Virus genome (UHGV): UHGV-0057547
From: a virus
Direction: 5' to 3' (one strand)
Length of the DNA stretch: 64,000 bases
Positions 29,453 to 63,473 of this stretch are shown here, in pieces (position 1 is the first letter of the stretch; each line of letters starts with the position of its first letter). A model generated the notes under the pieces. It ran no database searches. It saw nothing but the letters and a program-made list of their open reading frames with translations, and had not been told where the DNA came from. The position numbers were made by a program, and so were the translations under genes.

Positions 29453-30006
29453 ATGGCAAAAGCAAAAAAAGAAATAAAGAAAATAATATGTACTACATGT
29501 GGAAGAGAATTGCCTGAAAAAGACTTTGGTAAATCTTATTCATTTAGAGATAAGTTAAATGGAAGATTACCGATTTGCAAAGACTGTTGTGCTAGTTTAT
29601 ATGATAAGTTAATGGTAGATTATCAAGATGAAATGAAGGCGTTATATAGATTTTGTATGATATTAGATTTATATTTTTCTAAAGATACAGTTATGGGATT
29701 AATAAGTAAGAATAGAAATTCTGAAAGTAATCTTGGATATCTATATGTATTAAAATATAATTTGGTACAATATAAAAATAAAACATTTCAAGATACAACA
29801 GCATTTGTAAATATATTTGGTATGACAGAAGAAGAGATGGAAGAAGCATTATATTTAAATACTGAAAAAACAAAAGAAGAAATAGAAAGAAAAACTAAGA
29901 AAATAGTTACTCCGGAAGTAATCAAACGTTGGGGCTCGGATTTAGAGCTAGACGATTATATTTTTCTTGAAGATAGATATAACCAAATGCTTCTTGCTTA
30001 TGATGT
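29453..30006 (+). CDS. Terminase small subunit-like protein, exon 1 (zinc-ribbon N-terminus)
   Basis: Position directly upstream of the terminase large subunit gene; ORF reads through into the intron for 6 codons; P1 pairing gatgt/gcgtc defines the 5' splice site. Confidence 0.4.
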
Positions 30007-31417
30007 AATTATGCGTCCTATGTAAAGAAATTTGCATAGAAAATCTCCTTAATTGCAGGTAATTCCTAAAGCCTTACACCAAAACGGAAGGTGAAAACCT
30101 AAACGGCAACGGTACGAAAGTAGAAAAAACGTAAGGATGGATATAAGGTTAAATCCTAAGTATCCAAACATATTTATATATGTTAAAATGGATGTTCATG
30201 CAGGTAAGATTCTAAATTAAATTATTTTAAATACTTAACTTTTAATAAGATAAATTGTATAATATAAATAAAGAGAGGTGATAAAATGGCAAAAAAGAAA
30301 TCTCATGAGGAGTTTGTTAATGAATTAAATATAAAAAATCCTAATATAAAAGTATTGAATAAATATGTAAATGTGTCTACGAAAATAATGGTTAAATGTA
30401 TAATTTGTGGAAATGAATGGATGGCAATACCTGGTAGTTTATTAAATGGAACTGGGTGTCCAAAATGTGCAAATAAAAATAAATCAAATAAACAAAGAAA
30501 GACAAAAGAACAATTTATAGAAGAGATGAAAATTATTAATCCTAATGTTAAAATAATCGGTGATTATATTAATAATCATACGAAGATAAAATGTGAATGT
30601 TTAATATGTGGGAATATATATTTTATGATACCTAAAAATTTAAGGAAAGGGCAAAATTGTCCTGAATGTGCTATGAAACAAAGAGTATCTAAAAAATCTA
30701 AAATTCATGAACAATTTATAATTGAATTAAATGATATAAATAAAAATATTAAAGTATCAAATAAATATATAAATGCAAAAACAATCATGGAATGTTCTTG
30801 TGATATTTGTGGTCATAAATGGAAATCTAATGCTGATAATTTATTAAGAGGTCATGGGTGTCCAAAGTGTGCAATAGAAAATAGTAGAGGTGAAAATAAC
30901 CATAATTGGAATCCTAATCTTACACAAGAAGATAGAGAAAATAAAAGAAATTATATGGAATATAAAGAATGGAGAAAAAATTGTTATGAACGAGATGATT
31001 ATACTTGTCAAGTTACAGGGAAAAGAGGAGTAGAATTATGCGTACATCATTTATATTCTTATAATAAATATTATTGTTTAAGAACTGCATTAGATAATGG
31101 TATAACAGTATCTAAAGAAATACATGAATTGTTTCATAAAATATATGGACGAGGAGATAACACATTAGAACAATGGGAAGAATTTATTAAAAGTTTAGAA
31201 TAATTTAATATGAATCAAAGCTCAACGACTATTCCGTAAGGAAGTAAAACCACAAGCTATTGGTGGAAGAAAAGGGAGATACCTTAACAGATAATGCTGA
31301 AGGTGAAGAAATAGTCTACTCTCATATGAAAGTATGAGCAGTTTTGTATATATACAAAACGGATTAAGTGTAGCGAACTTAATTGAATATAAAGGATAAG
31401 AATCCCTCATCCCTTTG
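30007..31417 (+). mobile_element. Group I intron carrying an HNH-type homing-endonuclease ORF
   Basis: P1 and P2 hairpin ctatg..catag; conserved 5' core; P7 elements caacGACTA ... gaaATAGTCTa; 3' end inferred from frame (ccctttg|g). Confidence 0.6.
30286..31203 (+). CDS. Intron-encoded homing endonuclease: three zinc-ribbon repeat modules plus C-terminal HNH domain
   Basis: Repeats CxxC...GxGCPKC; C-terminal CQVTG...CVHHL..YN...DNG motif; own promoter and RBS. Confidence 0.6.
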   Translation: MAKKKSHEEFVNELNIKNPNIKVLNKYVNVSTKIMVKCIICGNEWMAIPGSLLNGTGCPKCANKNKSNKQRKTKEQFIEEMKIINPNVKIIGDYINNHTKIKCECLICGNIYFMIPKNLRKGQNCPECAMKQRVSKKSKIHEQFIIELNDINKNIKVSNKYINAKTIMECSCDICGHKWKSNADNLLRGHGCPKCAIENSRGENNHNWNPNLTQEDRENKRNYMEYKEWRKNCYERDDYTCQVTGKRGVELCVHHLYSYNKYYCLRTALDNGITVSKEIHELFHKIYGRGDNTLEQWEEFIKSLE

Positions 31418-31696
31418 GTCATATCAAGAAATATGTATGAATTATTTACTCCTTAGAAAAGATAGAGGAAATGTTCAACTTCAAAAAAGTATTCAAGAAA
31501 TTAATAGTAAATTACAAGCTGACTGTAAAATGAAATTATCACAAATAGATAATGATGATGATGACAATGCTTGTTTTGGGAAATTTATAGATAGAATAGA
31601 ATTATATGAACCATGTAATAAAAAGTTACCATTTTTTGAAGATATAGATGGAATAAGACAATACTTAAAACGATGGAAACAAAAAGCCACGACTGT
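31418..31696 (+). CDS. Terminase small subunit-like protein, exon 2
   Basis: Only open frame; phase matches exon 1 (2-nt carry-over); P1 ctgt|at with IGS atatgcag. Confidence 0.4.
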
Positions 31697-32088
31697 ATAG
31701 AAATATGCAGTGGACACAGATTTAATTGCAGGTAATTCCTAAAGCCTTACACCAAAACGGAAGGTGAAAACCTAAACGGCAACGGTACGAAAGTAGAAAA
31801 AACGTAAGGATGGATATAAGGTTAAATCCTAAGTATCCAAACATATTTATATATGTTAAAATGGGTGTTCATGCAGGTAAGATTCTAAGTGATAATTTTA
31901 TATCATATGAATAAACTTCAACGACTAGAATGCAAATTCGTAGGGTGTAAGCGATTGACACTCGAAAAGGTCTGCCCTTAACAGGTAATGCTGAAGGTGA
32001 AGAAATAGTCTAGTCACTCTAGGAAACTAGGTGCTTAGAATTAACTAAGGTTTATAGTGTAGCGACTATAAGTAAATATTAACGTTTG
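31697..32088 (+). mobile_element. ORF-less group I intron (3' boundary 32088 or up to 32110)
   Basis: 5' half nearly identical to 30031-30285; contains caacGACTAg and ATAGTCTAg P7 strands; ends aacgtttg. Confidence 0.55.
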
Positions 32089-32110
32089 TTTTGCCTTTTG
32101 CGAAGCAGTG

Positions 32111-32259: not shown

Positions 32260-32401
32260 AGTCCAAAAGAAAATGTTGAAAAAGAAGAAATACTTTCCGA
32301 TGATGTCATGAAAAGTCCTCATAGAAAAAGAAGGAATTTATCCCAAAGAAAAAAAGATAGATTAAATGAAGGTATGAAAATATGGACTGCATTTTATAGG
32401 T
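32251..32401 (+). CDS. terL: Terminase large subunit, exon A
   Basis: ATG overlapping upstream stop; exon ends ttttatagg-t with P1 pairing to IGS gctta. Confidence 0.5.
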
Positions 32402-32747
32402 TAAATATTTAGCTTATTTTATTAGGTAACTAATAATCTAAACCCTTTGAATTGCTGGAAAGGACTTAGAGCCTATTGAACTACAACGTGACTAGAAATG
32501 GTGAGCGTGAATGTTTAAAAATCAATAGGATTGTTTAATCAGCAGGTAAGATTCTAAATTGCTATAAACAATATGAATAAACTTCAACGACTAGAGTTTA
32601 AACTCGTAGGCTACAAGTTATTGGTAGTCGAAGCGGAGGGCATCCTTTCATAGGATGAAGATATAGTCTGTTCTTATATGAAAATATAAGTAGTTCTTTA
32701 TTTAATAAAGAACAGTATGTATGTAGCGAATACATATGAACATTTAG
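32402..32747 (+). mobile_element. ORF-less group I intron
   Basis: Conserved 5' core (aattgctggaaagg...cagcaggtaagattctaa) directly joined to 3' core (aataaacttcaacgactag...gatatagtctg). Confidence 0.6.
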
Positions 32748-32863: not shown

Positions 32864-34032
32864 AAATAGATATGCTCCATTATATAGAAATATATAATTA
32901 AAAATCAATCAAAATCGGTAAAAGTCTAAGTTTAATATTTACATTTTTTAGGAATATAAGTATAATATATAAAAGGGGTGAGATTAAATGGGTAAAATAA
33001 TAAATAAATATGATAGAATAGGTGAAACATCGATATCAAAAGAAGGATATGAAATGAAAATAATTGAATATATTGATGCAAGACATATTCTAATAGAATT
33101 TCAAGATGAACATAAAACTAGGTTAATGTGTCAATATGGTGACTTTAAATGTAGAAAAAATATTAAAAATCCATATCATCCAGCAGTATATAAAATAGGG
33201 TATTTGGGACAAGGTAAATATAATAAAAAAAATTATCAACGTATATATTGGACATGGAAAGATATGCTGAGAAGATGTTATAGTGAAGAGTACTTAAAAA
33301 GAGAACCTTCTTATAGAGGCTGTTGTGTTTGTGAAGAATGGCATAATTTCCAAAACTTTGCTAAATGGTATGAAGAAAATTATTATGAAGTTGAGAATCA
33401 AAGAATGCATTTAGATAAAGATATACTTGTAAAAATGAATAAAACATATAGTCCACAAACTTGTATATTTGTTCCACAAATAATTAATAGTTTATTTATA
33501 ACATCTAAGGCTATAAGAGGAGAATATCCTATTGGCGTTTCAAGAAAACAGAATAAATTAATTGTTCAAATTAATAAATATGATGAAAATATGAAAAAAT
33601 CAAAATATACAATGGTAAAAAAATTTGAAATAGAAGAAGTAAATGAAGCATTTTTTTGCTATAAAACAGAAAAAGAAAATGAAATAAAGAAAAGAGCCGA
33701 TTTATTTAAAGAATATATTCCAAAAAAATTGTATAATGCATTATATAAATATAAAATTGAAATAACAGATTAAATATGATAATACCGAGGTAAGATAGAA
33801 AATTAAAAAGTTCTATCCACTGTAGAGCATAGAGATTGAACCTTTGTAAGAACTATTATACAATAGTTCTTTTTTAATTGCAAAGAATAAAATATCTCCA
33901 AGAGTGATTGACACCTTACTATTAAGTTAAAGGTGAAAATATATGCCATACTGAGCTAGAATTGACTAGCTGATGAAAATGAGGGAAACCTCCAGAGGTT
34001 AAGATAAAAAACTTAACGTTAATAATGAATAG
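32864..34032 (+). mobile_element. Type-2 (T-family) intron carrying an HNH endonuclease ORF; 3' part is element T1
   Basis: P1 ggggt/gctcc, P2 attatatagaaatatataat, caaaatcggt block, internal promoter, ORF, then about 270-nt T1 element. Confidence 0.5.
32988..33773 (+). CDS. Intron-encoded HNH-family homing endonuclease (Bacillus-phage type: WTW-DML-RRC...CCVCEEW..F..F..W...LDKDIL motif)
   Basis: Diagnostic conserved motif set read directly; own promoter and RBS aaaagggg. Confidence 0.55.
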   Translation: MGKIINKYDRIGETSISKEGYEMKIIEYIDARHILIEFQDEHKTRLMCQYGDFKCRKNIKNPYHPAVYKIGYLGQGKYNKKNYQRIYWTWKDMLRRCYSEEYLKREPSYRGCCVCEEWHNFQNFAKWYEENYYEVENQRMHLDKDILVKMNKTYSPQTCIFVPQIINSLFITSKAIRGEYPIGVSRKQNKLIVQINKYDENMKKSKYTMVKKFEIEEVNEAFFCYKTEKENEIKKRADLFKEYIPKKLYNALYKYKIEITD

Positions 34033-34135
34033 TTATCGAAATCGTATATGACAGCAATATTCCTTTGTTGTAAAGCAATATTATATCCAAATAGTTTAAT
34101 TGTAGTTTCTTGTTCAACTAAGGAGCAAGCGAGAT
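34033..34135 (+). CDS. terL: Terminase large subunit, exon e34 (P-loop ..LSKSYMTAIF.. and LIVVSCSTKEQAR Q-motif)
   Basis: Joins exon X in phase to give ICARGLSKSY Walker A-like loop; ends gcgagat with IGS gtctc. Confidence 0.5.
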
Positions 34136-35567
34136 ATAATGTCTCCTATATTAAGTGATTAGTATAGCAAATCTTTTGAATTGCTGGAAACTCCTAAAGC
34201 TCAATTCACTACAACGTAAGGTTAAATCCTAAGCGTGAATGTTACGAAAGTAGAAAAAAGTAATTGAGATGGTATAAGGTTAAATCCTAAGTACTTTTAC
34301 AATGGACAATCAGCAGGTAAGATTTATATTTATTTTACTTTACTTTTAATAATTAATTTCGTATAATTTAAGTAAATGGAGGTGAAATATTATGGCATGG
34401 AAATATGAAGATGTGAAAAAGTATGTAGAATCATTTGGTTATAAATTAATATCAAAAGAATATAAGACTTGTAAAGATAAACTTCATTTAATGTGTCCTA
34501 ATGAAAGTGATTTTATTGTAAGATTTGATAATTTTAAAAATGCTAAACAACGTTGTAAATGTGATAAATGTAAAGGTAGAAATCCAAGAATGTTTTCTTA
34601 TGAATATGTAAAAGAATACATAGAAAAAGAAGGGTATAAATTAATATCAAAAGAATACAATGGAAATAAAAAACGTATAGAATTAGAATGCCCAAATGGT
34701 CATAAATGGAAAGTAAGATTTACTGATTTTAAAAATGGAAGAAGATGTTATTATTGTTCTTGTTGTTATAAACCTACCATTGGAGAAATTAGAATGAGAT
34801 TATCAAAATATGGTTATACATTGTTATCTGAAGAATATAAAAATGCAAATGAAAAAATTAATGTAAAATGCCCTAATGGTCATAAATATCCTACTACATA
34901 TCATAATTTTGATAATGGTAAAAGATGTCCATACTGTTATAATAAATATAGTAAAGGTGAGTATAGACTTATAAATTTATTTAATAATTATAAAATAAAC
35001 TATAAACATCAATATATTTTTAATGATTGTAGAGATATAAATCCTTTGCCATTTGATTTTTATTTATATGATTATAATTGTTGTGTAGAATTTGATGGAG
35101 AAGGGCATTATGAACCTAGAAATTGGAATGGAGCTTCAGATGAAAAAGCAATAGAAACATATAAAATAACGGTATTACATGATAAAATTAAAACACAATA
35201 TTGTAAGGATAATAGCGTAAAACTCATAAGAATACCATATTGGGAATTTAATAATATAGAAAACATTATTTGTCAAGAATTAAATATTAAAAGAAAACAA
35301 AGAAGAAAAGGTAATAAATTAAAATAAATATGAATAAACTTCAACGACTAAGTATCCTAGTAGTCTAGGTAGAGGAAGAGGTCTTATATTAATAAGATTG
35401 TGATATAGTCTGCTCTCATGCGAAAGCATGAGCAGTTCATAAAAGAACGGATAGAATAGTAACGATATTCTATTGAACATAAGGAATCTTATAAAGGAGA
35501 AGATAGCTAAAGAGCTATGTTCTCAATCGAAAATGTTAAATAGAGAAATTGCTAAAGTAGTCACTGG
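34136..35567 (+). mobile_element. Group I intron carrying a Zn-ribbon/DUF559 homing-endonuclease ORF (3' end approximate)
   Basis: P1 gagat/gtctc, P2 ctatattaagtgattagtatag; conserved 5' and 3' cores flanking the ORF. Confidence 0.55.
34392..35327 (+). CDS. Homing endonuclease, Zn-ribbon repeat modules plus DUF559/Vsr-like PD-(D/E)xK nuclease domain
   Basis: Three modules YEYVKEYIE..GYKLISKEY...CPNGH...F..FKNG.RC; C-terminal PLPFDFYL...VEFDGEGHYE...KLIRIPYWEF. Confidence 0.6.
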   Translation: MAWKYEDVKKYVESFGYKLISKEYKTCKDKLHLMCPNESDFIVRFDNFKNAKQRCKCDKCKGRNPRMFSYEYVKEYIEKEGYKLISKEYNGNKKRIELECPNGHKWKVRFTDFKNGRRCYYCSCCYKPTIGEIRMRLSKYGYTLLSEEYKNANEKINVKCPNGHKYPTTYHNFDNGKRCPYCYNKYSKGEYRLINLFNNYKINYKHQYIFNDCRDINPLPFDFYLYDYNCCVEFDGEGHYEPRNWNGASDEKAIETYKITVLHDKIKTQYCKDNSVKLIRIPYWEFNNIENIICQELNIKRKQRRKGNKLK

Positions 35568-35631
35568 TACTAATGAAACAGTGGTTATCTTTAACAATGG
35601 TAGTACCATTCAAGTTTAATGCTTTGCACAT
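35568..35631 (+). CDS. terL: Terminase large subunit, exon e35 (boundaries approximate)
   Basis: Only open frame; phases fit e34 (1-nt) and e38 (2-nt carry-over); P1 gcacat/gtgtgt. Confidence 0.35.
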
Positions 35632-35877
35632 TGAGTAATTAGTGTGTATAACCGATTGAATTGCTTGTAAATCCTAAAGCTAACTAAACTACAACGTAAC
35701 CTGAAAAGGTAAGCGTGAATGTAGCGAAAGCAGAAAAAATTAGTTAGATGGTATATGGTTAAATCCTAAGTACTTTTACAATGGAAGTCTAGCAGGGAAG
35801 ATTCTAAAATTATTTAAATTAAATATTTGACTTTTAATAATATAAGTTGTATAATATAAATAAATGGAGGTGATAAT

Positions 35878-36834
35878 ATGTCAAAAATAATGTGGGATGA
35901 AAAATCAATAAAAAAATTTGTTGAGCAATATAATCATGAATTCATTGAAATTATAGAATTTAATAACATAAGAAGTTTAATAAAAATTAAATGTAAAAAT
36001 AAAAAACACAAACCATTTGAAATAAAATTTACATCATTTAGACAAACTATGCTAAAAAATGGAAATTCTTGCAAAGAATGTAAAAAAGAAGCAAAAATGT
36101 TAAAAAGAGAAGATGTAGAAAACCTAATTAGAGAAAGAGGACTTATTTGGCTAGAGGGAGAGTATATAAGTAATGATACAAAAAATTTATTAGTATGGTG
36201 TGGAAATATTAATCATGAACCATTTTTAACAAGTCAAAATTATATATTATGTAATAATGGTAATAGTTGCAAAAAATGTGGTATAGAAAATAATGCAAAT
36301 AACAAAAGACTTTCATATGAGTATGTATATAACTATATAAAAAATGAGGGTGATGAACTATTATCAAAAACTTATGTAAACAATTCACAAAATTTAAAAA
36401 TTAAATGTGGTAAATGTAATAATGTATTTGAAACTTCATTTGGGCACTATCAAAATAAAGATAGAAGATGCTTATGTAAAGCTCAATCAAGAGGAGAATA
36501 TGAAATTAAACGAATATTTGATAAATATAATTTAATTGAAAATGTAGATTATGAATGTCAAAAAAAATACGAAGGATTAATTGGGGTTGGTGGTAGAAAA
36601 CTTTCTTATGATTTCTATATCAATAATACATTAATAGAATATCAAGGTTCTTATCATGATGGAACTGCTAGAAAACAAACAGATGAAGGATATGAGATAC
36701 AAAAGGAACATGATAAAAGAAAAAAAGATTATGCTAAAAATAATAACATTAATTTATTAGAGATATGGTATTGGGACTTTAATAATATAGAAAATATACT
36801 TATAGAAAATTTTAATTTAAATAATAATGAATAA
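35878..36834 (+). CDS. Homing endonuclease, Zn-ribbon repeats plus DUF559/Vsr-like domain
   Basis: Same modular architecture as 34392..35327; C-terminal LSYDFYI...IEYQGSYHD...NLLEIWYWDF. Confidence 0.55.
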   Translation: MSKIMWDEKSIKKFVEQYNHEFIEIIEFNNIRSLIKIKCKNKKHKPFEIKFTSFRQTMLKNGNSCKECKKEAKMLKREDVENLIRERGLIWLEGEYISNDTKNLLVWCGNINHEPFLTSQNYILCNNGNSCKKCGIENNANNKRLSYEYVYNYIKNEGDELLSKTYVNNSQNLKIKCGKCNNVFETSFGHYQNKDRRCLCKAQSRGEYEIKRIFDKYNLIENVDYECQKKYEGLIGVGGRKLSYDFYINNTLIEYQGSYHDGTARKQTDEGYEIQKEHDKRKKDYAKNNNINLLEIWYWDFNNIENILIENFNLNNNE

Positions 36835-37086
36835 CCTTCAACGAACAAGTATCCTAGTAGTCTAGGTAGTGGTCGGTATCCTTAGTAAAGGATAATGATA
36901 TGTTCTGCTCTCATGTGAAAGCATGAGCAGTTTATGTGATTAATTAAAATTCACAAATAAACGGTATAAGGTATAACGAACCTTATATGAACACAAATGC
37001 AGTAAACGCTTCTCAAAATACAAGAGGTAAATTTTTCATATCACTTTACATTTTTTAATAATTAGAGTATAATATAAACAAAGGGG

Positions 37087-37956
37087 GTGATTGAATTGAA
37101 ATGGACTAAGGATATGGAGCAATACTTAATTGATAATTATAATAAATTAACTATTGAAGAATTAGCTAAAAATATAGGAGTAACAAAATCCTCAATAATA
37201 AATAAAGCTTTTTCATTAAAAATAACAAATAATGTTAAAAATAAAGATAGAGGAAATATTAATATATTTAAAAATATAAATTCAGAAGAAAGTGCTTATT
37301 GGTTAGGATTTATATATGCTGATGGTTATATAGTTAAAAGTGAAAATGATAAAAAACATCATAATTATGAATTAGGTATAGAACTTCAAGAATCTGATAT
37401 TTCTCATTTGAAAAAATTTAATAAAATATTTAATGATTATTATAAAATAAAAACAAGAATCAGAAAAATGGATTCATTGGATATTTTAAATGGAAATGAA
37501 GTTTCAAATAGATTAAATAAAACTTGTTTGATAAGAATATATAATAAAGAAATAGTTAATGATTTAATAAAAAATAATATTGTTCAAAATAAAACTAATT
37601 CAGATATATTTCCTATTATAGATGATGACAATATGTTTTTACATTTTTTAAGAGGATATATTGATGGCGATGGTTCTTATGTTGTTGATAGTAAAAATAG
37701 ATACATAATATCAATTCAAGGTAATAATAAAAAATGTTTTGAATTTATATCTAATAAGTTATTAACAAGTTTTAATATTAATTCATATATAACAAAAGAT
37801 AAAACAGGTTGGAAATTAAATATAAGAAAAAAAGATGATGTTTTAAAATTAATAGATTTAATGTTTAATAATTCAAATATTTATTTAGATAGAAAATATG
37901 AGAAAGTAAAAGATATGAAAAAAGCCGTCTTTAATAGAAATATTAAAGATAATTAG
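37087..37956 (+). CDS. LAGLIDADG homing endonuclease (double-motif, single-chain)
   Basis: Two LAGLIDADG motifs: LGFIYADGYI and LRGYIDGDGS; GTG start after RBS aaaggggg. Confidence 0.7.
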   Translation: MIELKWTKDMEQYLIDNYNKLTIEELAKNIGVTKSSIINKAFSLKITNNVKNKDRGNINIFKNINSEESAYWLGFIYADGYIVKSENDKKHHNYELGIELQESDISHLKKFNKIFNDYYKIKTRIRKMDSLDILNGNEVSNRLNKTCLIRIYNKEIVNDLIKNNIVQNKTNSDIFPIIDDDNMFLHFLRGYIDGDGSYVVDSKNRYIISIQGNNKKCFEFISNKLLTSFNINSYITKDKTGWKLNIRKKDDVLKLIDLMFNNSNIYLDRKYEKVKDMKKAVFNRNIKDN

Positions 37957-38280
37957 AGAACAAAATCGGTCATAGTAAATCGTAAGATTAAGCTGATAAG
38001 AGAGCCTAAGTCCTTATAGGATATGGTAATACCGAGGTAAGATAGAAAATTAAAAAGTTCTATCCACCGTAACGCATAGAGATTGAACCTTTGTGAGAAC
38101 TATTATACAATAGTTCTTTTTTAATTACAAAGAATAAAATATCTCCAAGAGTGTTCTCCACCTTATCATTAAGTTGAAGGTGAAAATATATGCTGGACTG
38201 GGTATGAATTGACATACCATAATGCGAGGAAACTCCTAGAACTAGAGGATAAAAAGCCTTTAGGATAACAAAACGTTAAG

Positions 38281-38325
38281 ATGCCATGTACTCGTGGTTG
38301 ATGAGTATAGAATGATACAAGGAGT
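38281..38325 (+). CDS. terL: Terminase large subunit, exon e38 (Walker B ..CHVLVVDEYRMIQG)
   Basis: Open frame; ends ggagt paired to IGS gctcc of the next intron. Confidence 0.45.
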
Positions 38326-39865
38326 AATATATAGCTCCCTATGTTTATAAAAAGCATAGAAAAACTCTTTAATTGCTGGAAACTCCTAAAGTCCTATAAA
38401 CTACAACATGATTAGAAATAATGAGTGTGAATGTTACGAAAGTAGAAAAAATTATAGGAATGGTATATGGTTAAATCCTAAGTACTTTTACAATGGACAA
38501 TCAGCAGGTAAGATTTATATTTATTTTACTTTACTTTTAATAATTAATTTTGTATAATTTAAGTAAATGGAGGTGATAAAATGTTAAAATATAATAATGA
38601 TTATATTATCAATTATATAAATGAAAATTATAAAAATTTTAAAATAGTAAGTATAGATGGTAATGGAAAGGAAGCTATTGTAACTTTATGGTGTGGCGTT
38701 AGTGGTCATAAACATATACAATGCACATTTGCTAATCTTTTATATAAAGATAGTTTTCACTGTAGAGAATGTAAAAAAGATGATAAGATAAACGAAATAA
38801 AAAAGATTATAGGTGATGAATATCAAATAATCTCAATAGATTATATTAGTAATGATTGGATAAGAAGTAGAGCTATATTATGGTGTGGAATAGAAGGACA
38901 TGAATATATTGATGTATCTTTTAAATCAATAATAAATGGAAATATTATTGGATGTAAATTATGTAGAAAAAATAAACATATATTAAAAATAAAAGAAAAT
39001 GTAGAAAAAGTTAATAAAAAATTAATAGAAGTAAAAAAATATAATGAAAAAGATTATCACAAATCAAGAATAATAGTATCTTGTGGTAATGAAAAACATG
39101 AATTAATAGAGACTTCTTTAAATAAAATTATAAATTCAAACGTTAAATGTAAGGATTGCATAAAAGAAGATAATATTAATAAAATGATGCTATATATAAA
39201 TTCTACTCAATACAAATTTAATAAAATTGTAAAATATTGTGAATCAGATTATATAAAAAGTATGGTAGAAATAACATGTCCAAAAGATGAAACCCACATA
39301 TTTACAATGAGATTTTCTAATTTTAAATATGAAGGTAAAAGATGTCCTCATTGTGGTATGACTTATGGTGAACAAGAAGTTGCAAATGTATTAAAAAGAT
39401 ACAATATAAAATATAAATTTCAATATAAATATAAAGATTGTAGATTTATAAATCCTCTTCCTTTTGATTTTTATTTACCTGATTATAACATATTAATTGA
39501 ATACGATGGTAAACAACATTATGAATCAGTAGATTTATTTGGTGGAGAAAAAGGTTTTAAATATACAAAACAAAATGATGGAATAAAAAATCAATACTGT
39601 AAGAATAATAATATAAAATTAATAAGGATACCATATTGGTGTTTTAATAATATAGAAGAAATATTAATTAAAGAATTAAAAGTAAACATAAATAAATATG
39701 AATAAACTTCAACGACTAGAACGTAAGTTCGTAGGGTGTAAGTGATTGACACTCGAAATGGGAGTTACCTAATAATAGGTAGTGATATAGTCTAGTCTCA
39801 TATGAAAGTATGAGCAGTTCATAAGAGAACGTACATAACGTAGCGAATTATGTAGAATATAACGG
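38326..39865 (+). mobile_element. Group I intron carrying a Zn-ribbon/DUF559 homing-endonuclease ORF
   Basis: P1 ggagt/gctcc, P2 ctatgtttataaaaagcatag, conserved cores, P7 GACTA/TAGTC; ends ...gaatataacgg. Confidence 0.6.
38581..39705 (+). CDS. Homing endonuclease, Zn-ribbon repeats plus DUF559/Vsr-like domain
   Basis: Four Cys-pair modules; C-terminal PLPFDFYLPDYNILIEYDGKQHYE...NNIKLIRIPYWCF. Confidence 0.6.
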   Translation: MLKYNNDYIINYINENYKNFKIVSIDGNGKEAIVTLWCGVSGHKHIQCTFANLLYKDSFHCRECKKDDKINEIKKIIGDEYQIISIDYISNDWIRSRAILWCGIEGHEYIDVSFKSIINGNIIGCKLCRKNKHILKIKENVEKVNKKLIEVKKYNEKDYHKSRIIVSCGNEKHELIETSLNKIINSNVKCKDCIKEDNINKMMLYINSTQYKFNKIVKYCESDYIKSMVEITCPKDETHIFTMRFSNFKYEGKRCPHCGMTYGEQEVANVLKRYNIKYKFQYKYKDCRFINPLPFDFYLPDYNILIEYDGKQHYESVDLFGGEKGFKYTKQNDGIKNQYCKNNNIKLIRIPYWCFNNIEEILIKELKVNINKYE

Positions 39866-40021
39866 TTTTGATACATTAAACTCAGTATTAAGACCATTCT
39901 TAAACTGTGTTAGAATACCAAAATTTAAGAATAGAGATGATGGAAAATATGCAGATTATCCATCAGAGGAAAACCAAGAGATTTATTTGAGCAGTGCATT
40001 AAAACTAGTGCAAACTATGGT
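39866..40021 (+). CDS. terL: Terminase large subunit, exon e39
   Basis: 52-codon open frame in AT-rich DNA; phases consistent with both flanking exons. Confidence 0.45.
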
Positions 40022-40341
40022 GAAATGTAGATAGCTATAGTTGAGTATCAATCAAAATCGGTCATATGTATAGTGATATACATGGTAAGAAAGACTAAGT
40101 GTTAATTTAACATAAGTTGATACCGAGGTAAGTTAAGGAACTAAAAAGCCTTATCCACTGTAACGCATAGAGATTGAACCTTTGCAAGAACTATTATATA
40201 ATAGTTCTTTTTTAATTGCAAAGAATAAAATATCTCCAAGAGTGATTGACACACGCTACATTTATTGTGTGAAAATATATGCTGAACTTATAGGAAACTA
40301 TAAGAACTAAAGGATAAAAAGCCTTTAGGATAACAATTTGG
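40022..40341 (+). mobile_element. Standalone ORF-less T-family intron (element T3); 5' boundary 40022 or 40033
   Basis: P1 atggt/gctat, caaaatcggtcatatg block, about 300 nt, shares covarying hairpins with T1, T2 and T4; both boundary choices give a consistent terL frame. Confidence 0.45.
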
Positions 40342-41465: not shown

Positions 41466-42364
41466 GTGAGTGAAGAAAAAAAGCAAAAGAAGTTGTTTGC
41501 AGAAACTTCTGTAGCTAACAATGCACAAAAATATACAACTAAACCAGTTAAATATAGTGCTAGTGAAATAATGGGATTCTTAGAAGACCCACAAGCAAAT
41601 GCACTTAACTTACAAAAAGCTAGTATTTGGTTGTATTATAATAGTGGTATATACAATAGAATAATTAATAACTATGCTGGTATGAATATCTATGATTTAT
41701 ATTTATATCCAACTACAATTAGTAAATTTTCTAAATCAAAAAGAAAAATAACACCTGATAAATTATATAAAGATTATTTAGATATAAGTAATTTATTAGA
41801 AAGAATTAGTTGGAAATCAAATTATCGTAATATAGGAGTTAACCTTATGATACAAGGAGAAGTTTTCTTATATGATGTATCTGATAATCAAGGTACTATA
41901 TTAAAAGAAATACCAACTGAAATATGTAAAATATGTAAGGTTATAAATGATAATTTATATAAATATGCAATCAATGTAAATAAATTAGGTACAGCAGAAT
42001 ATTATTCAATGATGCCTTTAGGATTACAAAGATTATATGACCAACATAAAGCAGGTTCACTATCACCTGAACAATATTTAGGAACTGCTGGTTCAGGTTA
42101 TGTAATAGTAGATGACCCTGAAGCAATATGTTTAAGTTTAAATAATATGACTTCAACAAAATCTGTTCCAACTTTATCTTATTTATTTCCTTCATTATTA
42201 AGATTAATGGAAGAAGAAGAAAATGAAGTTGTGGAAAATAAAGCTAATAATTTAAAAATGATACATATGCAATATGATGTAGATGAAGAAGGCGAATCAA
42301 GAATAGCTGAAGCTGACCTTATAAAAATGCATAATTCAGCTAAAGCCAATTTACCAGTAGGAGT
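41466..42364 (+). CDS. Portal protein, exon 1
   Basis: Gene order after terL, size and acidic C-terminus of the spliced product; exon ends ggagt (2-nt carry-over). Confidence 0.5.
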
Positions 42365-43679
42365 AACATATAGCTCCCTATGTTTATAAAAAGCATAGAA
42401 AACTCTTTTAATTGCTGGAAACTCCTAAAGCTCAATTCACTAAAACATAATCTGAAAATGATAAGTGTGAATGTTACGAAAGTAGAAAAAAGTAATTGAG
42501 ATTACCCAAGGTTAAATCCTAAAGGTGAATGAATGGACAATCAGCAACCAAGATTTTAAGTTTAATTCATTGATTTTTAATATAATATAAAATAAAGTGA
42601 GGTAATTAATATAGCATTAAAATGGACTGAAGAAAAAATAATAGAATTTATAAATAATGAAAATTATATAGTAAAAAAAATAATAAGTGGAATTGGAAAA
42701 GAAACGAGATTATTGGTATGGTGTGGTAATCCTAATCATAAACCATATAAAGTTATTTTTAATAATTTTAAAAGAGGAACAAGATGTCAGTCTTGTTATG
42801 ATGAAAGAAGAAGAAAATGGACTGATGAAATTATTAAAGAATATTTAGAAAGTTATAAATATAAACTAATAGAAATTATAAAATCTAAAGGCGTTCAATC
42901 TATTGTAAAAATAAAATGTCCTAAATGTGGATATGTATATACTATTAAATTTGATACATTTAGAAATGGTCGTAGATGTATGCAATGTTTTCTTAAAGAA
43001 AATAGAATTAGTGAAGAAGAAATAAAAAAAATAATAAAAGATAATAAAGATATATTAATAGATATTGAGTATCATAGTTTAGATAGTATTTTATATTTAT
43101 ATTGTAATAAATGTAAAAAAAATTATCCTATTACATTTTATTGGTATTTAAAAGGCGGAAGATGCAAGTTTTGCAAAGAATCAAGAGGGGCTAGAAAAAT
43201 AAGAGAATATTTAGAAAATAAACAATATAATTTTAAACAAGAATTTAGAATTAAAGAATGTAGATATAAATTTCCATTACCATTTGATTTTATGGTTACT
43301 ATAAATGATAATATTATTTTAATAGAATTCGATGGGTTAGAACATTATGAACCTATTGAGTATTTTGGAGGTATAGTTAAATTTAATGAAAGAAAAAGAA
43401 ATGATAATATTAAAAATCAATATTGTAAAGATAATAATATAAAACTTATAAGGATTCCATATTGGGAATATGACAACATAGATGAAATATTAAATAAAGA
43501 ATTAAACTTAAAATAAGGTTCAACGACTAGAGCGTAAGCTCGTAGAGTGTAAGTGATTGACACTCGAAATGGAGAGTATCTAATAATAGGTAGTGATATA
43601 GTCTAGTCTCATATGAAAGTATGAGCAGTTCATAAGAGAACGGATTAGGAGTAGCGACCCTAATTGAATACAACGTTTG
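42365..43679 (+). mobile_element. Group I intron carrying a Zn-ribbon/DUF559 homing-endonuclease ORF
   Basis: P1 ggagt/gctcc; cores as in the other type-1 introns; 3' end aacgtttg fixed by reading frame. Confidence 0.6.
42713..43516 (+). CDS. Homing endonuclease, Zn-ribbon repeats plus DUF559/Vsr-like domain; conserved N-terminal region extends to an ATA at 42611 behind a good RBS (possible start-codon mutation)
   Basis: TTG at 42713 is the first canonical start; upstream in-frame IALKWTEEKIIEF matches paralog N-termini. Confidence 0.5.
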   Translation: MVWCGNPNHKPYKVIFNNFKRGTRCQSCYDERRRKWTDEIIKEYLESYKYKLIEIIKSKGVQSIVKIKCPKCGYVYTIKFDTFRNGRRCMQCFLKENRISEEEIKKIIKDNKDILIDIEYHSLDSILYLYCNKCKKNYPITFYWYLKGGRCKFCKESRGARKIREYLENKQYNFKQEFRIKECRYKFPLPFDFMVTINDNIILIEFDGLEHYEPIEYFGGIVKFNERKRNDNIKNQYCKDNNIKLIRIPYWEYDNIDEILNKELNLK

Positions 43680-44523: not shown

Positions 44524-45098
44524 TTGAAAGGAGGTGTAATTATGAATAACAAACTTAGATTACCTATTAAAAGATTTGAAAGTACAGATGAAGTTTTAGT
44601 TAATACAAACTTTAAAAAAGTTAAAATATACATTATGCATACAGGTGAAAACCTTAATGGTTCTGTATTTTCAGTAGATAGTATAAATGATTCAATAGAT
44701 ACACTTGCAAACATTCCAATATTGGCATTTGTTGAAAAAACTGATGGACAAGATAACAAAGATTTTGCAGGACATGAAACTGATTTAGATATATTTACAG
44801 ATGAAGATGGAACAATTAAAGTAAGAGAATACTATAAAGAAGTACCTATTGGAGTAATACCTGAAAGTAATGATTATTTCTTTGAAGAAAAAGATGGAGA
44901 AACATACTTAGGGTGTTATGGTTACATATGGAAATGTTATTCTAATGATGCTTATGACATATTAGAAGAAGACCAAGAAAAAGAAGTCTCTATGGAAATT
45001 TATATAAATAATTGTTCTTATGATAGAAAACAAAGATGTAATATTAATAAATTTGAATTTCTTGGAGTTACAGTGTTAGGTGCTAAATACCCAGGAGT
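44524..45098 (+). CDS. Prohead protease/scaffold-like protein, exon 1
   Basis: Position between portal and capsid genes; exon ends ggagt paired to gctcc. Confidence 0.4.
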
Positions 45099-53107: not shown

Positions 53108-53253
53108 ATGGCTACACTATTTGCTATAAAAGATGCAATAGATTTAAAAATAACTAAAAAAGGTGAATCAGCAGTTTTCACTACAATAGACTACTTAAAT
53201 GAATGTCAAATACAAATGGACTCAGAACAAGTATATGCTCTTAAAAAAGGAGT
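53108..53253 (+). CDS. Major tail protein-like, exon 1
   Basis: Exon ends ggagt paired to gctcc; spliced product ends in an Ig-like-looking C-terminal exon. Confidence 0.4.
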
Positions 53254-54610
53254 AATTTGCTCCCTATGTAAGTAAATTGCATAGCAAATCCTTTTAATTG
53301 CTGGAAACTCCTAAAGCCTTGCAAACCACAACGCAACTTGAAAAAGTAAACGTGATGGTGACGAAAGTAGAAAAAATTGTAAGGATTACCCAAGGTTAAA
53401 TCCTAAAGGTGAATGAATGGACAATCAGCAGGTAAGATTTATATTTATTTTACTTTACTTTTAATAATTAATTTCGTATAATTTAAGTAAATGGAGGTGG
53501 TAGATATAAAATGGACAGAAGATAGAATTAAAGAATATGTTGAAAATCAAGGATATACTTATATAAAAAGAATTGAAGGAAAAGCAAGTATGTCGATTAT
53601 AGAAGTTTGGTGTGGAAATCTTAATCATAAATCTTATAGGGTTATGTTTAAAAATTTTAAAGGTAATAAAGCAAAAAAACCAACAAGATGCCCATATTGT
53701 AGTAAAAATAAAAAATTAACCATTGAAGAAGTAAGAGTATTTGTTGAAAAATATGATTTTAGTTTATTATCTGTAGAATATATTAATAATAGAACTCCAT
53801 TAACACTACAATGTAAAAATGGACATATATTTTCAATAAGATTAGATAATTTTAAACAAAGTTTAAAATGTCCAATGTGTTATAGACATTATGGTGCTTA
53901 CACCGAAGATGAAGTTAAGCAATACCTTGAAAGTTTTGGTTATGAATTACTGAATAAATATATAGATATACATAAAAAAATAATAATTAAATGCCCTAAA
54001 GGTCATATTTATAAAACTTCATTTAATAGTTTTAAAAATAATGGAACTAGATGTTCTATTTGTAGAAAATCAAAAGGTGAAGAAAAAATATCTAAAACAT
54101 TAAAAGAATTAAAAATAAAATTCATAAGTCAATTTGTATTCGATGATTGTCAATATAAAACATATCTTCCATTTGATTTTTATTTACCTGAATATAATAT
54201 ATTAATTGAATACGATGGGATTCAACACTATGAACCTGTAGACTTTGGTGGTAAAGGAAATGAATGGGCAAATAAACAACTCGAATTAACAAAAATAAAA
54301 GACAATATAAAAACACAATATTGTGAAAATAATAATATAAAACTTATAAGAATATCTTATTGGGAATTTGATAGCATAGAAAATATATTAAGTAAAGAGT
54401 TAAAAGTAAGAAAATAAATATGAATAAACTTCAACGACTATTCCGTAAGGAAGTAAAGCCACAAGCTATTGGTGGAAGAAATGGAGGATACCTAGAAATA
54501 GGTAGTGATATAGTCTGTTCTCATGTGAAAGCATGAGCAGTTTATATTGAATGAGTATAAACGATGTATGTGTAGCGAACATATGTGAACACAAAGATAA
54601 CTATATATCA
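53254..54610 (+). mobile_element. Group I intron carrying a Zn-ribbon/DUF559 homing-endonuclease ORF (3' end approximate)
   Basis: P1 ggagt/gctcc, P2 ctatgtaagtaaattgcatag; cores and P7 present. Confidence 0.55.
53491..54417 (+). CDS. Homing endonuclease, Zn-ribbon repeats plus DUF559/Vsr-like domain
   Basis: YLPFDFYLPEYNILIEYDGIQHYE...NNIKLIRISYWEF. Confidence 0.6.
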   Translation: MEVVDIKWTEDRIKEYVENQGYTYIKRIEGKASMSIIEVWCGNLNHKSYRVMFKNFKGNKAKKPTRCPYCSKNKKLTIEEVRVFVEKYDFSLLSVEYINNRTPLTLQCKNGHIFSIRLDNFKQSLKCPMCYRHYGAYTEDEVKQYLESFGYELLNKYIDIHKKIIIKCPKGHIYKTSFNSFKNNGTRCSICRKSKGEEKISKTLKELKIKFISQFVFDDCQYKTYLPFDFYLPEYNILIEYDGIQHYEPVDFGGKGNEWANKQLELTKIKDNIKTQYCENNNIKLIRISYWEFDSIENILSKELKVRK

Positions 54611-54639: not shown

Positions 54640-55026
54640 AATGAACTGTAACTAGTACAGCGTATGTAAAGAAATTTACATAGGACACAACCTTAAAACC
54701 AGTAACTCCTAAAGCTCAACAACTACAACAAAGGATAGAATCAGAAACCTTTGTGAATGTGAGGAAACTCTGAAACAATAGTTGAGATGATATATGGCGA
54801 GAGCCTAAGTATTGTAACAATGGATGTTTGGTCGCCAAACTTAGAAATAAGAAGGTCAAACGACTATGATTTGAAAGAATCATAAAGCCTCAAGCGAATG
54901 GAGGAAGAAATGGGTTGCCCCTAACAGATAATGCTGAGGGTGAAGAAATAGTCTAGTCACTCTAGGAAACTAGGTGCTTAGAATTGACTAAGGTTTATAA
55001 GTTGCGATTATAAATAAATATTAACG
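54640..55026 (+). mobile_element. ORF-less group I intron directly downstream of the previous intron, separated by a putative micro-exon within ~54611-54650
   Basis: P2-like hairpin atgtaaagaaatttacat, 5' core aactcctaaagctcaacaactacaac...tagttgagatgatatatgg (ctcaaca/tagttgag covariation), P7 caaacgactatg...gaaatagtctag. Confidence 0.5.
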
Positions 55027-56039: not shown

Positions 56040-56042
56040 GAT

Positions 56043-61630: not shown

Positions 61631-62695
61631 TAATTGATTTGCCGTTTATATTAGAAATAATATAAATTATTAGAGGGCAAAATCGGTGAAGACTAAATAT
61701 TTTAATTTATTTACTTTTAATAAAAAATATGGTATAATAATATAAAATAGGAGGGGATATAATGAGAAGATTGAGTTATGAATATGTAAAAGAGTATATA
61801 GAAAATTTTGGTTATAAATTATTATCAAAAGAATATAAAAACAATAAAACTGAATTAGAAATACAATGTAATGATTGTGGGAATATATTCCATATGAGAT
61901 TTAACAATTTTAAAGATGGTAAACATAGATGTGAATGTAAGAGCAAACCATTAGTTTTGACATATGAATATGTTAAAAATTATATTGAATCATGTGGATA
62001 TAAATTATTATCAAAAGAATATAAAAATAATGCAACCTATTTATTGGTTTGGTGTGGAAATCCTAATCACAAACCTTATAAAGTTAAATTTAATAATTTT
62101 AAAGATTGTAATAGTAGATGTCCTGAATGTAATACAACTTCAAAAGGTGAAGAAAAAATAAAAGAAATTCTAATAAAATATAATATAAAATTTAATCAAC
62201 AATATTTATTTAATGATTGTAGAAATACAAGACCACTTCCATTTGATTTTTATTTACCACAGTATAATATTACAATAGAATATGATGGGAGACAACATTA
62301 TAAATTAGATTGTTTTAATATGAATTTATTAGATTTAATGAATTTGAAATATAATGATAATAAAAAAACACAATATTGCAATAATAATAATATAAAACTT
62401 ATAAGAATACCATATTGGGATTTTAATAATATAGAAAAAATACTTAAAAAAGAATTAAAAGTAAATTGAATAAAGTACAAGTTAATACCGAGATAACTTA
62501 TTAGATTACGAAAAGGCTAATAAGTATTGTAGAGCATAGAGGATGAATAAATATAACTCCTCCAAGAGTGTCCTCCATCCTAACGTAAAGACGAGGATGA
62601 AAATATATGCCATACTGAATTGGAATAGACCAATTGATGAAAATGAGGGAAACCTCCAGAGCATAAGATAAAAAGCTTATGGATAATAACAATAG
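61631..62695 (+). mobile_element. Type-2 (T-family) intron carrying a Zn-ribbon/DUF559 endonuclease ORF; 3' part is element T4
   Basis: P2 tttatattagaaataatataaa, caaaatcggtgaagactaa block, internal promoter, ORF, then T4 with covarying hairpins. Confidence 0.5.
61762..62469 (+). CDS. Homing endonuclease, Zn-ribbon repeats plus DUF559/Vsr-like domain (shortest paralog)
   Basis: PLPFDFYLPQYNITIEYDGRQHY...NNIKLIRIPYWDF. Confidence 0.55.
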   Translation: MRRLSYEYVKEYIENFGYKLLSKEYKNNKTELEIQCNDCGNIFHMRFNNFKDGKHRCECKSKPLVLTYEYVKNYIESCGYKLLSKEYKNNATYLLVWCGNPNHKPYKVKFNNFKDCNSRCPECNTTSKGEEKIKEILIKYNIKFNQQYLFNDCRNTRPLPFDFYLPQYNITIEYDGRQHYKLDCFNMNLLDLMNLKYNDNKKTQYCNNNNIKLIRIPYWDFNNIEKILKKELKVN

Positions 62696-62708
62696 AAATT
62701 ACGCTGGT
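62696..62708 (+). CDS. Tape measure protein 13-nt micro-exon (aaattacgctggt) between two introns
   Basis: Flanked upstream by T4 3' end and downstream by P1 loop/IGS gccag complementary to its ctggt end; frame depends on exact splice sites. Confidence 0.35.
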
Positions 62709-63099
62709 TAGAATTAGCCAGGCTATATGGAGACATATAGTACAAATCTCTTTTGAATTGCTGGAAAGGACTTAGAGCCTATTGAACTACAACGTAGATG
62801 GAAACATCAAACGTGAATGTTAAAAAATCAATAGGATTGTTCAATCAGCAGGTAAAATTCTAAGTGATAATTTATCATATGAATAAACTTCAACGACTAT
62901 CCCTTGGATTTGCTAATTTAGTAAATCAATAGGAGTACGGCTCAAGCGATTGGAGTGGGTGAGAATCCCTTAAATGGAAGTGGAAGAGGACTTATAAAAG
63001 TTCAAGATATAGTCTACTCTCGTAGGAAATCTACGAGCAGTCCTTTTTTTGGACGGTATGTATATAGCGAATACATATGAATATTAAGGAATAACTTCG
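62709..63099 (+). mobile_element. ORF-less group I intron in the tape-measure gene (3' end 63089-63099)
   Basis: P1 ctggt/gccag, P2 ctatatggagacatatag, full 5' and 3' cores, P7 caacgactatc...agatatagtctac. Confidence 0.55.
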
Positions 63100-63473
63100 C
63101 AATTTCATCTGATGGTGTAACAGAAGCATTACAACGTGGTGGTTCTGTATTATCTAACTATGGAGTAGATTTAAAAGATTCCATTGCAATGATAACTGGA
63201 GCAAATGAATCTTTACAAGACCCTGCTCGTATAGGTAATGGTTTAAAATCTATAGCAATTAACCTTTCAGGTATTAAAACAAATGCACAAACAGGTGCTC
63301 TTGAATTAAATAAAACAGCAAAAGCATTACAAGAAACTGCTAAAATAGATATATTTACTGATAAATCTAAAACACAAGTTAAAGATATTGTTAGTATACT
63401 AGATGAAGTAAAAGATAAATGGGCTTCTTTGACTGATGTTGAACAAAAAGGATTATCAGAAGCCATAGCAGGT
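63100..63473 (+). CDS. Tape measure protein, further exon
   Basis: Open TMP-like frame from the intron end; exon ends gcaggt before another intron. Confidence 0.5.

Follow-up and report, generated by a model that had tools for sequence, protein, structure and literature searches.

That phages carry group I introns with endonuclease genes, that such introns are present at a site in some genomes and missing from it in others, and that the end of the 5' exon pairs with an internal guide sequence of the intron to form helix P1 are all textbook knowledge; the td, nrdB and nrdD introns of phage T4 are endonuclease-bearing examples. The last exon base of known group I introns is "virtually always a U (or exceptionally a C)" (PMC4227781). 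In the group B IStrons, G is the last base of the 5' exon, insertion follows AGGG, TGGG or GAGG, and the U at the junction belongs to the element (PMC4227781). Reverse transcription-PCR has shown that one of them, BcISt1 of Bacillus cereus, splices after this G, and P1 of these elements is topped by a U-G pair (Tourasse, Stabell and Kolsto 2014, PMC4227781). High intron density has also been described in phages: crAss-like phages of the Zeta group contain as many as 14 introns in one genome (PMC7886860), and the 360-400 kb genomes of Jug phages have about 18.5 introns each (PMC12880540). Here, we describe a 64,000-nt stretch of the viral genome UHGV-0057547 (the window), in which 17 group I introns, five of them only probable members of that class, interrupt packaging and virion genes and in which a short motif shared by their insertion sites is, in all likelihood, the exon strand of helix P1.

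The introns lie within positions 29453-64000 and make up 46% of that DNA. Twelve (A1 to A12) belong to one ribozyme family and five (B1 to B5) to another (Table 1). A preliminary description of the window, which listed eleven of the sites, had noticed that the exon ends resemble one another, reading G(A/G)GU followed by AA(U), and had proposed that a common target such as GGT^AAT allowed near-identical introns to spread by reverse splicing or illegitimate homing. The signal is real but was misread, because it consists of an RNA pairing element and of intron sequence rather than of a GGT^AAT target in DNA. Splice junctions were assigned at the DNA level from intronless alleles, reading frames and protein conservation. 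IMG/VR contains four phage contigs of 173-198 kb and several fragments, which share 93-99% identity with the window, and more relatives were found in ENA and in Logan assemblies.

The purine-rich exon ends very probably pair with the guide sequences of the introns that follow them. In each intron, the last four or five exon bases and the adjoining U are complementary to a segment that begins with G and lies 5-18 nt downstream. A helix of at least 5 bp can form at 12 of the 17 junctions, compared with 9.9% of random T positions, and one of at least 4 bp at 15 of the 17. Across 15 distinct pairs of exon end and guide, the proportion of paired cells is 94.7%, compared with 64% in shuffles; since each guide was picked as the best complement, this percentage is biased upward, which tells against taking it at face value, although the family-A guides nonetheless occupy a homologous place directly 5' of helix P2. 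Double changes of exon and guide number 23, compared with 5.6 in shuffles, and none of 500 shuffles reaches the observed values. When the register is slid, pairing drops to about 50%.

The preliminary description was right that a short exon element is shared beyond chance and that it matters for intron location, in that the last four or five exon bases must pair with the guide. The exons, 18.6 kb in all, contain GG[AG]GT 12 times, and the same motif stands at 6 of the 17 junctions (binomial P ~1e-14). The motif alone does not determine occupancy, as exonic copies without an intron include about a dozen GG[AG]GT, 43 GGAG and 13 GGGG. About 10 of the 17 junctions are located in or right after a glycine codon, among them those in the Walker A motif of the large terminase subunit TerL (ARG/LSKS, the slash marking the splice junction), the capsid protein (RRG/R), the tail tube (KKG/D), the portal (VG/V) and the scaffold (PG/A). 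The likeness of the exon ends probably has several sources. Related introns kept similar guides, and a helix of 4-5 bp in an A+T-rich genome would have to use G-C pairs. The G's would be supplied mostly by codons for Gly (GGN) and Arg (AGR), and also by the Glu codon GAG, at conserved protein positions. Exons adjoining introns carry synonymous changes that fit the guide, and the U is predicted to pair with the guide's first G.

The preliminary description holds in part at the level of single sites. The junction strings it quoted are present and ten of its eleven coordinates are exact; the T of ttggt is at 61631 rather than 61630, and 42364 is followed by AACA rather than AATA. Its consensus applies strictly, as G(A/G)GT, to six of the eleven sites, with gatgt, actgt, ttggt, ctggt and caggt deviating, and AA follows the junction at seven sites but not at the remaining four. 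The list is incomplete, and six further introns have exon ends at 32401, 34134, 35614, 37028, 39999 and 54648 (the last being that of A12). At seven of the eleven sites, the boundary lies upstream of the position that had been proposed: by one base at 38325, 42364, 45098, 47737 and 53253, by one or two bases at 30006 and, judged by the reading frame only, by two bases at 31696. The AA(U) that had been counted as part of the target is intron sequence, namely the intron's own 5' end (UAAY...) and the start of the P1 loop, conserved by descent.

Intronless alleles speak most directly to the idea of a target in DNA. By colinear alignment with relatives that are 93-99% identical, about 20 sites have an intron in some genomes and none in others, and at six of them (A2, A3, A4, A6, A8 and B4) forms with and without the endonuclease gene are found. 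A short shared target through which near-identical introns enter many genes, by reverse splicing or relaxed homing, would agree with several features of the region: GCUCC is the guide of five introns at five different genes or sites, GGAG is already present at the insertion point in four intronless alleles, introns without an open reading frame (ORF) occur at several sites, and a guide pairing of only 4-6 nt suffices for reverse splicing (PMC2504315). However, GGT^AAT is found at none of the empty sites, which read, for example, GGAG^ATAA, GGAG^TTTG, GAGG^TAGA or CAGA^AATC. The preliminary description had itself suggested comparing intronless alleles, and had named unrelated sequences at their junctions as the outcome that speaks against a common target; the 3' sides prove to have no common sequence. 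At eight family-A sites, including A4, A5, A7, A8, A9, A10 and A12, the T is not part of the target, and two more sites are ambiguous. The introns are not near-identical but 60-90% identical, mosaic and of two ribozyme families, and many exonic copies of the motif are unoccupied, as noted above. Reverse splicing, moreover, leaves exons unaltered, which does not agree with the exon changes described next. We consider this explanation unlikely and retain P1 pairing as the source of the shared motif.

At 8 of the 17 sites, the intron-bearing allele has synonymous changes that create or strengthen P1 relative to the empty alleles (Table 1). The canonical U at exon position -1 of B1 (GGT) and B5 is found in the intron-bearing allele only. 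A2 presents a more extensive case: 18 nt of exon (31677-31694, AAACAAAAAGCCACGACT, encoding KQKATT) are found only in A2-bearing alleles, where they form the 5' strand of the A2 P1, whereas the intronless alleles (relative P2 and L005, including a 70%-identical relative) read ...KRW/FVLPFAK without KQKATT. This segment resembles a fragment of some earlier host exon that moved together with the intron. Mismatches amount to 11-12% over the last 20 exon bases and to 2-6% further off, in a small sample that adjacent introns disturb. Dense clusters of synonymous differences occur at A3 and B2 (at B2, five within the first 9 nt of the 3' exon). Co-conversion of flanking exon sequence during homing could produce such a pattern, and so could selection for P1 pairing. 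Because of these intron-linked changes, part of the shared motif appears to travel with the intron and cannot be regarded as a wholly pre-existing target.

The exon changes fit either DNA-level transfer together with flanking exon or selection for splicing after insertion, and do not fit clean reverse splicing, the hallmark of which, unchanged flanking exons, is missing at these sites and at A2. One hallmark of homing, in contrast, is present, with ORFs in 11 of the 17 introns and intron-plus and intron-minus alleles at the same sites among close relatives. Endonuclease genes, variants with and without them at the same site, exon changes and the foreign exon at A2 favour DNA-level homing, and reverse splicing is not needed, although it may have acted at other sites. 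The mode of spread advanced in the preliminary description is not established, and the evidence points to events at the DNA level. Endonuclease-driven homing between co-infecting relatives would be the most likely route, complemented by rare ectopic DNA-level insertions that would survive only where P1 can form. A more far-reaching suggestion, offered tentatively and in our view rather doubtful, is that the family-A introns are an actively transposing swarm whose ribozyme, as in group B IStrons, has no need for a U at the splice site. If this were true, any short purine-rich exon stretch that matches the guide, or drifts toward it, would be a usable site, endonuclease-bearing introns could colonise new positions within one phage genome, and this phage group would offer a natural setting in which to follow the ectopic transposition of group I introns as it occurs. 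Intron gain and loss are documented unusually densely, and to the single base, in the window and its relatives, a data set that could be used to study homing, co-conversion and ectopic spread.

The intronless alleles also bear on the exact position of the 5' splice site. For the majority of family-A introns, the guide-pairing U is predicted to be the first intron base, the exon ending in a G (once an A) that is paired to C or U. At A4, A5, A7, A8, A9, A10 and A12, and at S1 and S14, two sites filled in relatives, the DNA confined to the intron-bearing allele begins with the guide-pairing U and ends with the tail G, and the exon base at -1 is G or A. The usual rule of a last exon base U in a U.G pair holds at A3, A11 and B1-B5, and at S18a in a relative. 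With U...G boundaries, family-A introns start with UAAY, UAU, UGA or UUU, and canonical relatives (A3, A11, S18a and two tail-tube introns of phage phiIPLA-RODI) start alike.

Other placements of the junctions were considered and rejected. Canonical junctions for A4-A10 and A12, with the exon extending to the U and the intron to the tail G, leave an extra base and lead to a stop within a few codons; at A7, a cut after the U leaves four T's rather than three. If both ends are moved 3' by one base (an intron running from A to G+N), the frame is kept but the last intron base becomes A, C or U; this placement was rejected because conserved residues change: D to V in the tube, N to Y in TerL and A to V in the scaffold. 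From 120 near-full-length matches to the tube, 12 intronless homologues were retrieved, all of which have KKG-DNYIS, and the three intronless scaffold homologues retrieved keep A-M-G (P-G/A-A-M-G). A 3' splice site in or right after a P9.2-like hairpin was discarded, as the hairpin shows covariation from intron to intron and the frames so obtained gain or lose conserved residues. A fixed distance from P2 to the cleavage site also failed, since S18a and A8 differ (6 and 4 nt) and phiIPLA-RODI differs again. Pairing in P10 amounts to only 2-3 bp, which is too weak to decide.

Some observations weigh against the shifted site. A1 and A6 can be read either way, canonical alternatives being available: the A1 boundary slides by one base (30005-31394 also fits), and the A6 alternative (38326-39865) changes Gly to Val. 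A2 fits no rule; only the removal of 31695-32084 keeps the frame, and this places the splice two bases 5' of the U.G pair, whose U is at 31696. Finally, the Kayvirus homologues (phiIPLA-RODI compared with phage K) are canonical, and the shifted site is thus not a property of the whole ribozyme lineage. Where the shifted site applies, it has practical consequences, as intron finders that expect the exon to end in U would frameshift the TerL, portal, scaffold, capsid and tail-tube genes. It had earlier been reported only for transposase-bearing group B IStrons. Its predicted occurrence in endonuclease-bearing and ORF-less phage introns would connect transposase-bearing and endonuclease-bearing elements, and is relevant to how stringent the requirement for the U.G pair is.

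The same likeness raises the question of whether the introns spread as IStrons do, by DNA transposition through an IS607/IS605-type transposase that prefers G-rich (GG) targets and that would have acted in cis formerly or would act in trans today. In favour of this, the ribozymes of family A and of the group B IStron of Clostridium botulinum phage c-st, which a transposase gene follows, are homologous, such elements begin with U and insert after G-rich sequences, and a TnpB-like ORF is encoded in the window. Yet none of the 17 introns contains a transposase ORF, their ORFs being of the CapR/zinc-finger, HNH-like or LAGLIDADG kind (a Pfam search of ten of them found no transposase), and because of this the window introns are not IStrons. 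Nor did a scan of ten ORFs in 1-28 kb, about half of the large ones in that interval, find an IS607-type serine recombinase. Targets of family A are GGAG (four times), GAGG, GGGG, GATG, CAGA, CAAG, AAAG and ATTG, and hence GG ends only 2-3 of 11, the others ending in AG, TG or GA. Their introns end in AAGG, AACG, AATG, ATTG or AAAG, and not in the CGG of group B IStrons. Transposition of this type is very improbable, and P1 pairing combined with DNA-level homing is retained as the preferred explanation. That endonucleases target conserved Gly/Arg motifs and that the G-rich ends are a by-product without a role in RNA pairing would account for the glycine codons at the junctions but is hardly credible, given the covariation of exon end and guide beyond all shuffles and the intron-allele-specific synonymous changes that improve pairing, and it would in any case complement the P1 explanation rather than replace it.

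Table 1. Introns of the window (coordinates in the window, all on the + strand) and three sites at which the window carries the empty allele. ^, insertion point; /, splice junction; (U), pairing U placed in the intron. Relatives P1 to P4 are genomes, not helices. Changes are synonymous and run from the empty to the intron-bearing allele.
Intron	Coordinates	Host gene and type	Intron ORF	66-nt cassette	Exon -1	5' exon end	Guide	Empty site	Intronless allele (source)	P1-improving change
A1	30006..31395	TerS-like; family A	endonuclease 30286-31203	30221-30286		GAUG(U)	GCGUC	TATGATG^ATAAG	TATGATG^ATAAGAAT (three relatives)	
A2	31695..32084	TerS-like; family A; boundary from reading frame only	ORF-less			ACUGU	GCAGU			
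A3	32402..32747	TerL, near N-terminus; family A; canonical	ORF-less		U	AUAGGU	GCUUAU	TATCGTT^TGAAT	relatives P2 and P4	CGT TTG -> AGG TTA
B1	32864..34032	TerL, in Walker A motif; family B	32988-33773		U	GGGGU	GCUCC	AGAGGG^TTATC	AGAGGG^TTATCG or AGGGGG^TTATCG (relatives P1, P2 and P4)	AGA GGG -> AGG GGT
A4	34135..35484	TerL; family A	endonuclease 34392-35327	34325-34390	A	GAGA(U)	GUCUC	GCCAGA^AATCT	GCCAGA^AATCTT (relative P2)	GCC -> GCG
A5	35615..36999	TerL; family A	endonuclease 35878-36834	35813-35878	G	AAG(U)	GCUU	TTCAAG^CAGTA	ATTCAAG^CAGTAAAT (relatives P1, P2 and P3)	
B2	37029..38275	TerL; family B	LAGLIDADG 37087-37956 (Pfam LAGLIDADG_3, 1.7e-14)		U			AGAGGT^TTGCG	AGAGGT^TTGCGCTGT (relative P3), TTAAGATGC in window	
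A6	38325..39864	TerL; family A	endonuclease 38581-39705	38516-38581		GGAG(U)	GCUCC	AAGGAG^GTTTT	CAAGGAG^GTTTTGAT (relative P2)	
B3	40000..40340	TerL; family B; canonical	ORF-less		U	UGCAU	GUGCA	GTGCCT^GGTTT	GCCT^GGTTTGAG (relative P4), GCAU/...UUUG/GGUUCGAG in window	GCC -> GCA
A7	42364..43675	portal; family A	endonuclease 42713-43516		G	GGAG(U)	GCUCC	GTAGGAG^TTTGT	GTAGGAG^TTTGTG (relative P2, L009)	
A8	45098..45502	scaffold/YonD-like; family A	ORF-less		G	GGAG(U)	GCUCC	CCAGGAG^CTATG	CCAGGAG^CTATGGGG (contig L026, 98% nt)	
A9	47737..49070	major capsid; family A	endonuclease 47986-48912	47935-48000	G	GGGG(U)	GCCCC	AGAGG^TAGAA	AGAAGAGGT^AGAACT (relatives P1 and P2), AGAAGGGG[U...G]CAGAACT in window	AGA -> AGG
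A10	53253..54596	tail-tube (YomU-like); family A	endonuclease 53491-54417	53440-53505	G	GGAG(U)	GCUCC	AAAGGAG^ATAAT	AAAAAAGGAG^ATAATTAC (L024, L025)	
A12	54649..55026	tail-tube; family A	ORF-less					GAATTG^TCAAG	AATGAATTG^TCAAGTAATG (relatives P2 and P3, L024)	AAT -> AAC
B4	61632..62695	tape-measure; family B; then 13-nt exon 62696-62708	endonuclease 61762-62469	61696-61761	U			TTTAGT^GAATT	relative P1	
A11	62709..63089	tape-measure; family A; canonical	ORF-less		U	CUGGU	GCCAG	GCTGGC^AATAA	GCTGGC^AATAAT (relative P1)	
B5	63474..64000	tape-measure; family B; 3' end beyond window	LAGLIDADG-like, from ~63566		U			GCTGGA^AAAAC	GCTGGA^AAAACC (relative P2), GCAGGT/AGTATG in window	GGA -> GGT
S1		window empty				GGGG(U), in relatives	GCCCC	TTGGGG^CTCGG		
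S14		window empty				AAG(U), in relatives	GCUU	CCAAAG^TTATA		
S18a		window empty			U, in relative			ATGAAT^CTTTA		GAA -> GAG

Family A belongs to the group I introns (RF00028) by its conserved core (P3-P9). At the curated threshold, Rfam recognises only one intron in the whole window, A3 (32392-32690, 92.8 bits); a permissive search adds A2 (31687-32033, 45.7 bits, slightly under the gathering score) and one 3' core fragment. Most introns escape such a search because ORF insertions in the P6 loop and divergence conceal their cores. Hidden introns were scored in small sequence windows and through natural ORF-less variants: ORF-less forms of A4 in relatives reach 79.3 and 77.3 bits and that of A6 in relative P1 reaches 66.1 bits, and the 3' core of A1 gives a weak match. 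The remaining introns of this family, 60-87% identical, have the core motifs AAUUGCNGG, UUCAACGACUA and AUAGUCU in common. Common parts also include the P9 hairpin, an extra hairpin with a GUAGCGA loop and a tail of 9-10 nt, AAYAYAAMG. The mosaic structure of these introns is illustrated by A2, whose 5' half resembles A1 (87%) and whose 3' half resembles A12 (82%). Complete junctions read AGGU/UAAAUAU...CAUUUAG/UAAAC in A3 and CUGGU/UAGAAUUAGCCAG...AUUAAGG/AAUAAC in A11.

Family B probably consists of group I introns as well. Its core differs from that of family A, and a member in a relative matches RF00028 end to end at 24.4 bits (E = 3e-4); the weakness with which Rfam recognises the family counts against this classification, which draws on that match together with canonical ends. 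B3 has a fold z of -4.1, and its helix P1 would pair UGCAU/UA with UAGUGCA. In both families, the last intron base is G, as seen in all 16 introns whose 3' end lies inside the window. Guanosine-dependent self-splicing is indirectly indicated as the way in which the exons would be joined, in that removal of all 17 units restores seven uninterrupted ORFs, each of a length divisible by three, and the joined sequences equal the intronless alleles. After removal, TerL has eight exons and is colinear with the TerL of Clostridioides phage LIBA2945, and the joined capsid protein is colinear with those of phiCD211 and LIBA2945. Joining the B4 exons gives D-L-V-N-Y-A-G-N-N, as in the intronless allele; relative P1 lacks both B4 and A11, whereas relatives P3 and P4 carry an ORF-less B4.

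Most of the ten intron ORFs searched against Pfam contain repeated CapR/treble-clef (CapR/DUF4379) zinc modules and a weakly PD-(D/E)XK-like C-terminus. The remaining ones comprise a weak HNH_2 match (in A1, beside CapR and treble-clef zinc modules), a LAGLIDADG protein (B2) and the B1 ORF, which has no Pfam match. The B5 ORF contains the LAGLIDADG-like stretch LGFWFADGYV. All eleven intron ORFs have promoter-like and ribosome-binding sequences of their own. A 66-nt cassette (TTTACT/TTGACT ... TATAAT ... GGAGGTG, repeat family D7) stands directly 5' of seven intron ORFs, which suggests that promoter-like and ribosome-binding sequences and the endonuclease gene move as one module.

From 29.4 kb onward, every long ORF is on the + strand, and 29.4-64 kb is the packaging and virion module of a phage with 25% G+C (22-34% across the window, mostly ~25%). 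The Clostridioides phages phiCD211 and LIBA2945 are distant kin, with ~35% identity in the major capsid protein by protein matches. Searches of cultured phages found no close relative, only ~35% amino-acid matches to phiCD211-like phages and short matches to intron cores. With phiCD211 and LIBA2945 proteins as queries, tblastn finds the TerS-like, TerL, portal, scaffold, capsid, tail and tape-measure genes in pieces, and precomputed Pfam labels in close relatives include the SPbeta-like YonD, YonB, YomX, YomW, YomV, YomU-tube and YomN. The introns interrupt the TerS-like, TerL (7 introns), portal, scaffold, capsid, tail-tube and tape-measure genes. Tiny internal exons separate some neighbours: 13 nt in the tape-measure gene (62696-62708), 29 and 49 nt in TerL (37000-37028 and 38276-38324) and 52 nt in the tail-tube gene (54597-54648). 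Their correct joining would need both flanking ribozymes to fold without mutual interference.

The window is empty at three further sites that are filled in relatives, at 55121 in the tail-tube gene and at ~63209 and ~63245 in the tape-measure gene. The sole annotated group I intron of phiCD211 (L001 28597-29182), also in the tape-measure gene, maps to window 63221-63264, a site that seems to be used across distantly related phages. Two other insertions, both in relatives, could be free-standing endonuclease genes: one of 724 nt in L019 (~11251-11976), between genes after window position 29199, and one of 602 nt in L004/L017 (relative P2), at window 56497-56506 in the opening part of the tape-measure gene. 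The DNA that precedes the intron-rich module contains an IS1595-like transposase ORF (1638-2681, +) and the TnpB-like ORF (7744-8871, +), which has HTH_OrfB_IS605, OrfB_IS605 and Cas12f1-like TNB domains; no group I core motif was seen beside the latter, which is not an obvious IStron. A 780-aa ORF at 12201-14543 (-), rich in SHAEG-x-TTASG repeats that resemble head repeats of trimeric adhesins or fibres, accounts for a local rise in G+C (34% compared with ~24%).

Among known systems, the group B IStrons (BcISt1, and CbISt of C. botulinum phages c-st and D-1873) are closest to family A in their ribozyme. A8 and the c-st IStron ribozyme are 75% identical over 57% of the length and have the same P9.x hairpin and GUAGCG loop. 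The c-st junction, AGAGG/UAACUAAC...GACAGCCUCC (GAGG/UAAC...GCCUC), has the layout of A9. In both groups, the exon ends in G and its surroundings are rich in G (GAGG, AGGG), the U at the junction is part of the element, and P1 is closed just under its loop by a U-G pair, which lies one base pair past the splice site. By homology, the window introns share the group B IStron ribozyme lineage and, as predicted here, its unusual splice site. Unlike the group B IStrons, they lack IS607/IS605 transposase genes in their 3' part and have homing-endonuclease ORFs in the P6 loop, or none; their exon base at -1 is G, A or U, and 12 copies occupy one operon of essential phage genes.

The introns of Staphylococcus Kayvirus and Twort-like phages have a related type of ribozyme (80-88% identity over core segments), and they likewise show, as do those of T4, endonuclease ORFs in peripheral loops, insertion at conserved codons of essential genes and intron-plus/minus polymorphism. 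The Kayvirus tail-tube introns compared here (phiIPLA-RODI with intronless phage K) are canonical, GGUU/UAAC...ACG/G, unlike the shifted family-A introns. In the therapeutic Staphylococcus phage phiIPLA-RODI (L022 2467-3140), two tandem canonical group I introns split the tail-tube gene, of which the record annotates only a truncated "tail tube" coding sequence. Kayvirus/Twort-like and T4 phages have 1-5 introns per genome, compared with 17 in 34.5 kb here.

In the crAss-like Zeta and Jug phages, self-splicing introns and endonuclease genes similarly fragment terminase, capsid and other core genes. Those are phages of Bacteroidota, and most of their ribozymes are short and lack an ORF; in the present region, introns are locally several times as dense, TerL alone contains seven introns, and close relatives resolve each site to the base. 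Intron-dense phage genomes and the shifted splice site of group B IStrons are thus already known. What is new is an IStron-type ribozyme in endonuclease-bearing and ORF-less introns, present in 12 copies along with five family-B introns in 34.5 kb of essential genes, as well as the seven introns of a single terminase gene and the resolution of these sites to the base by near-identical genomes.

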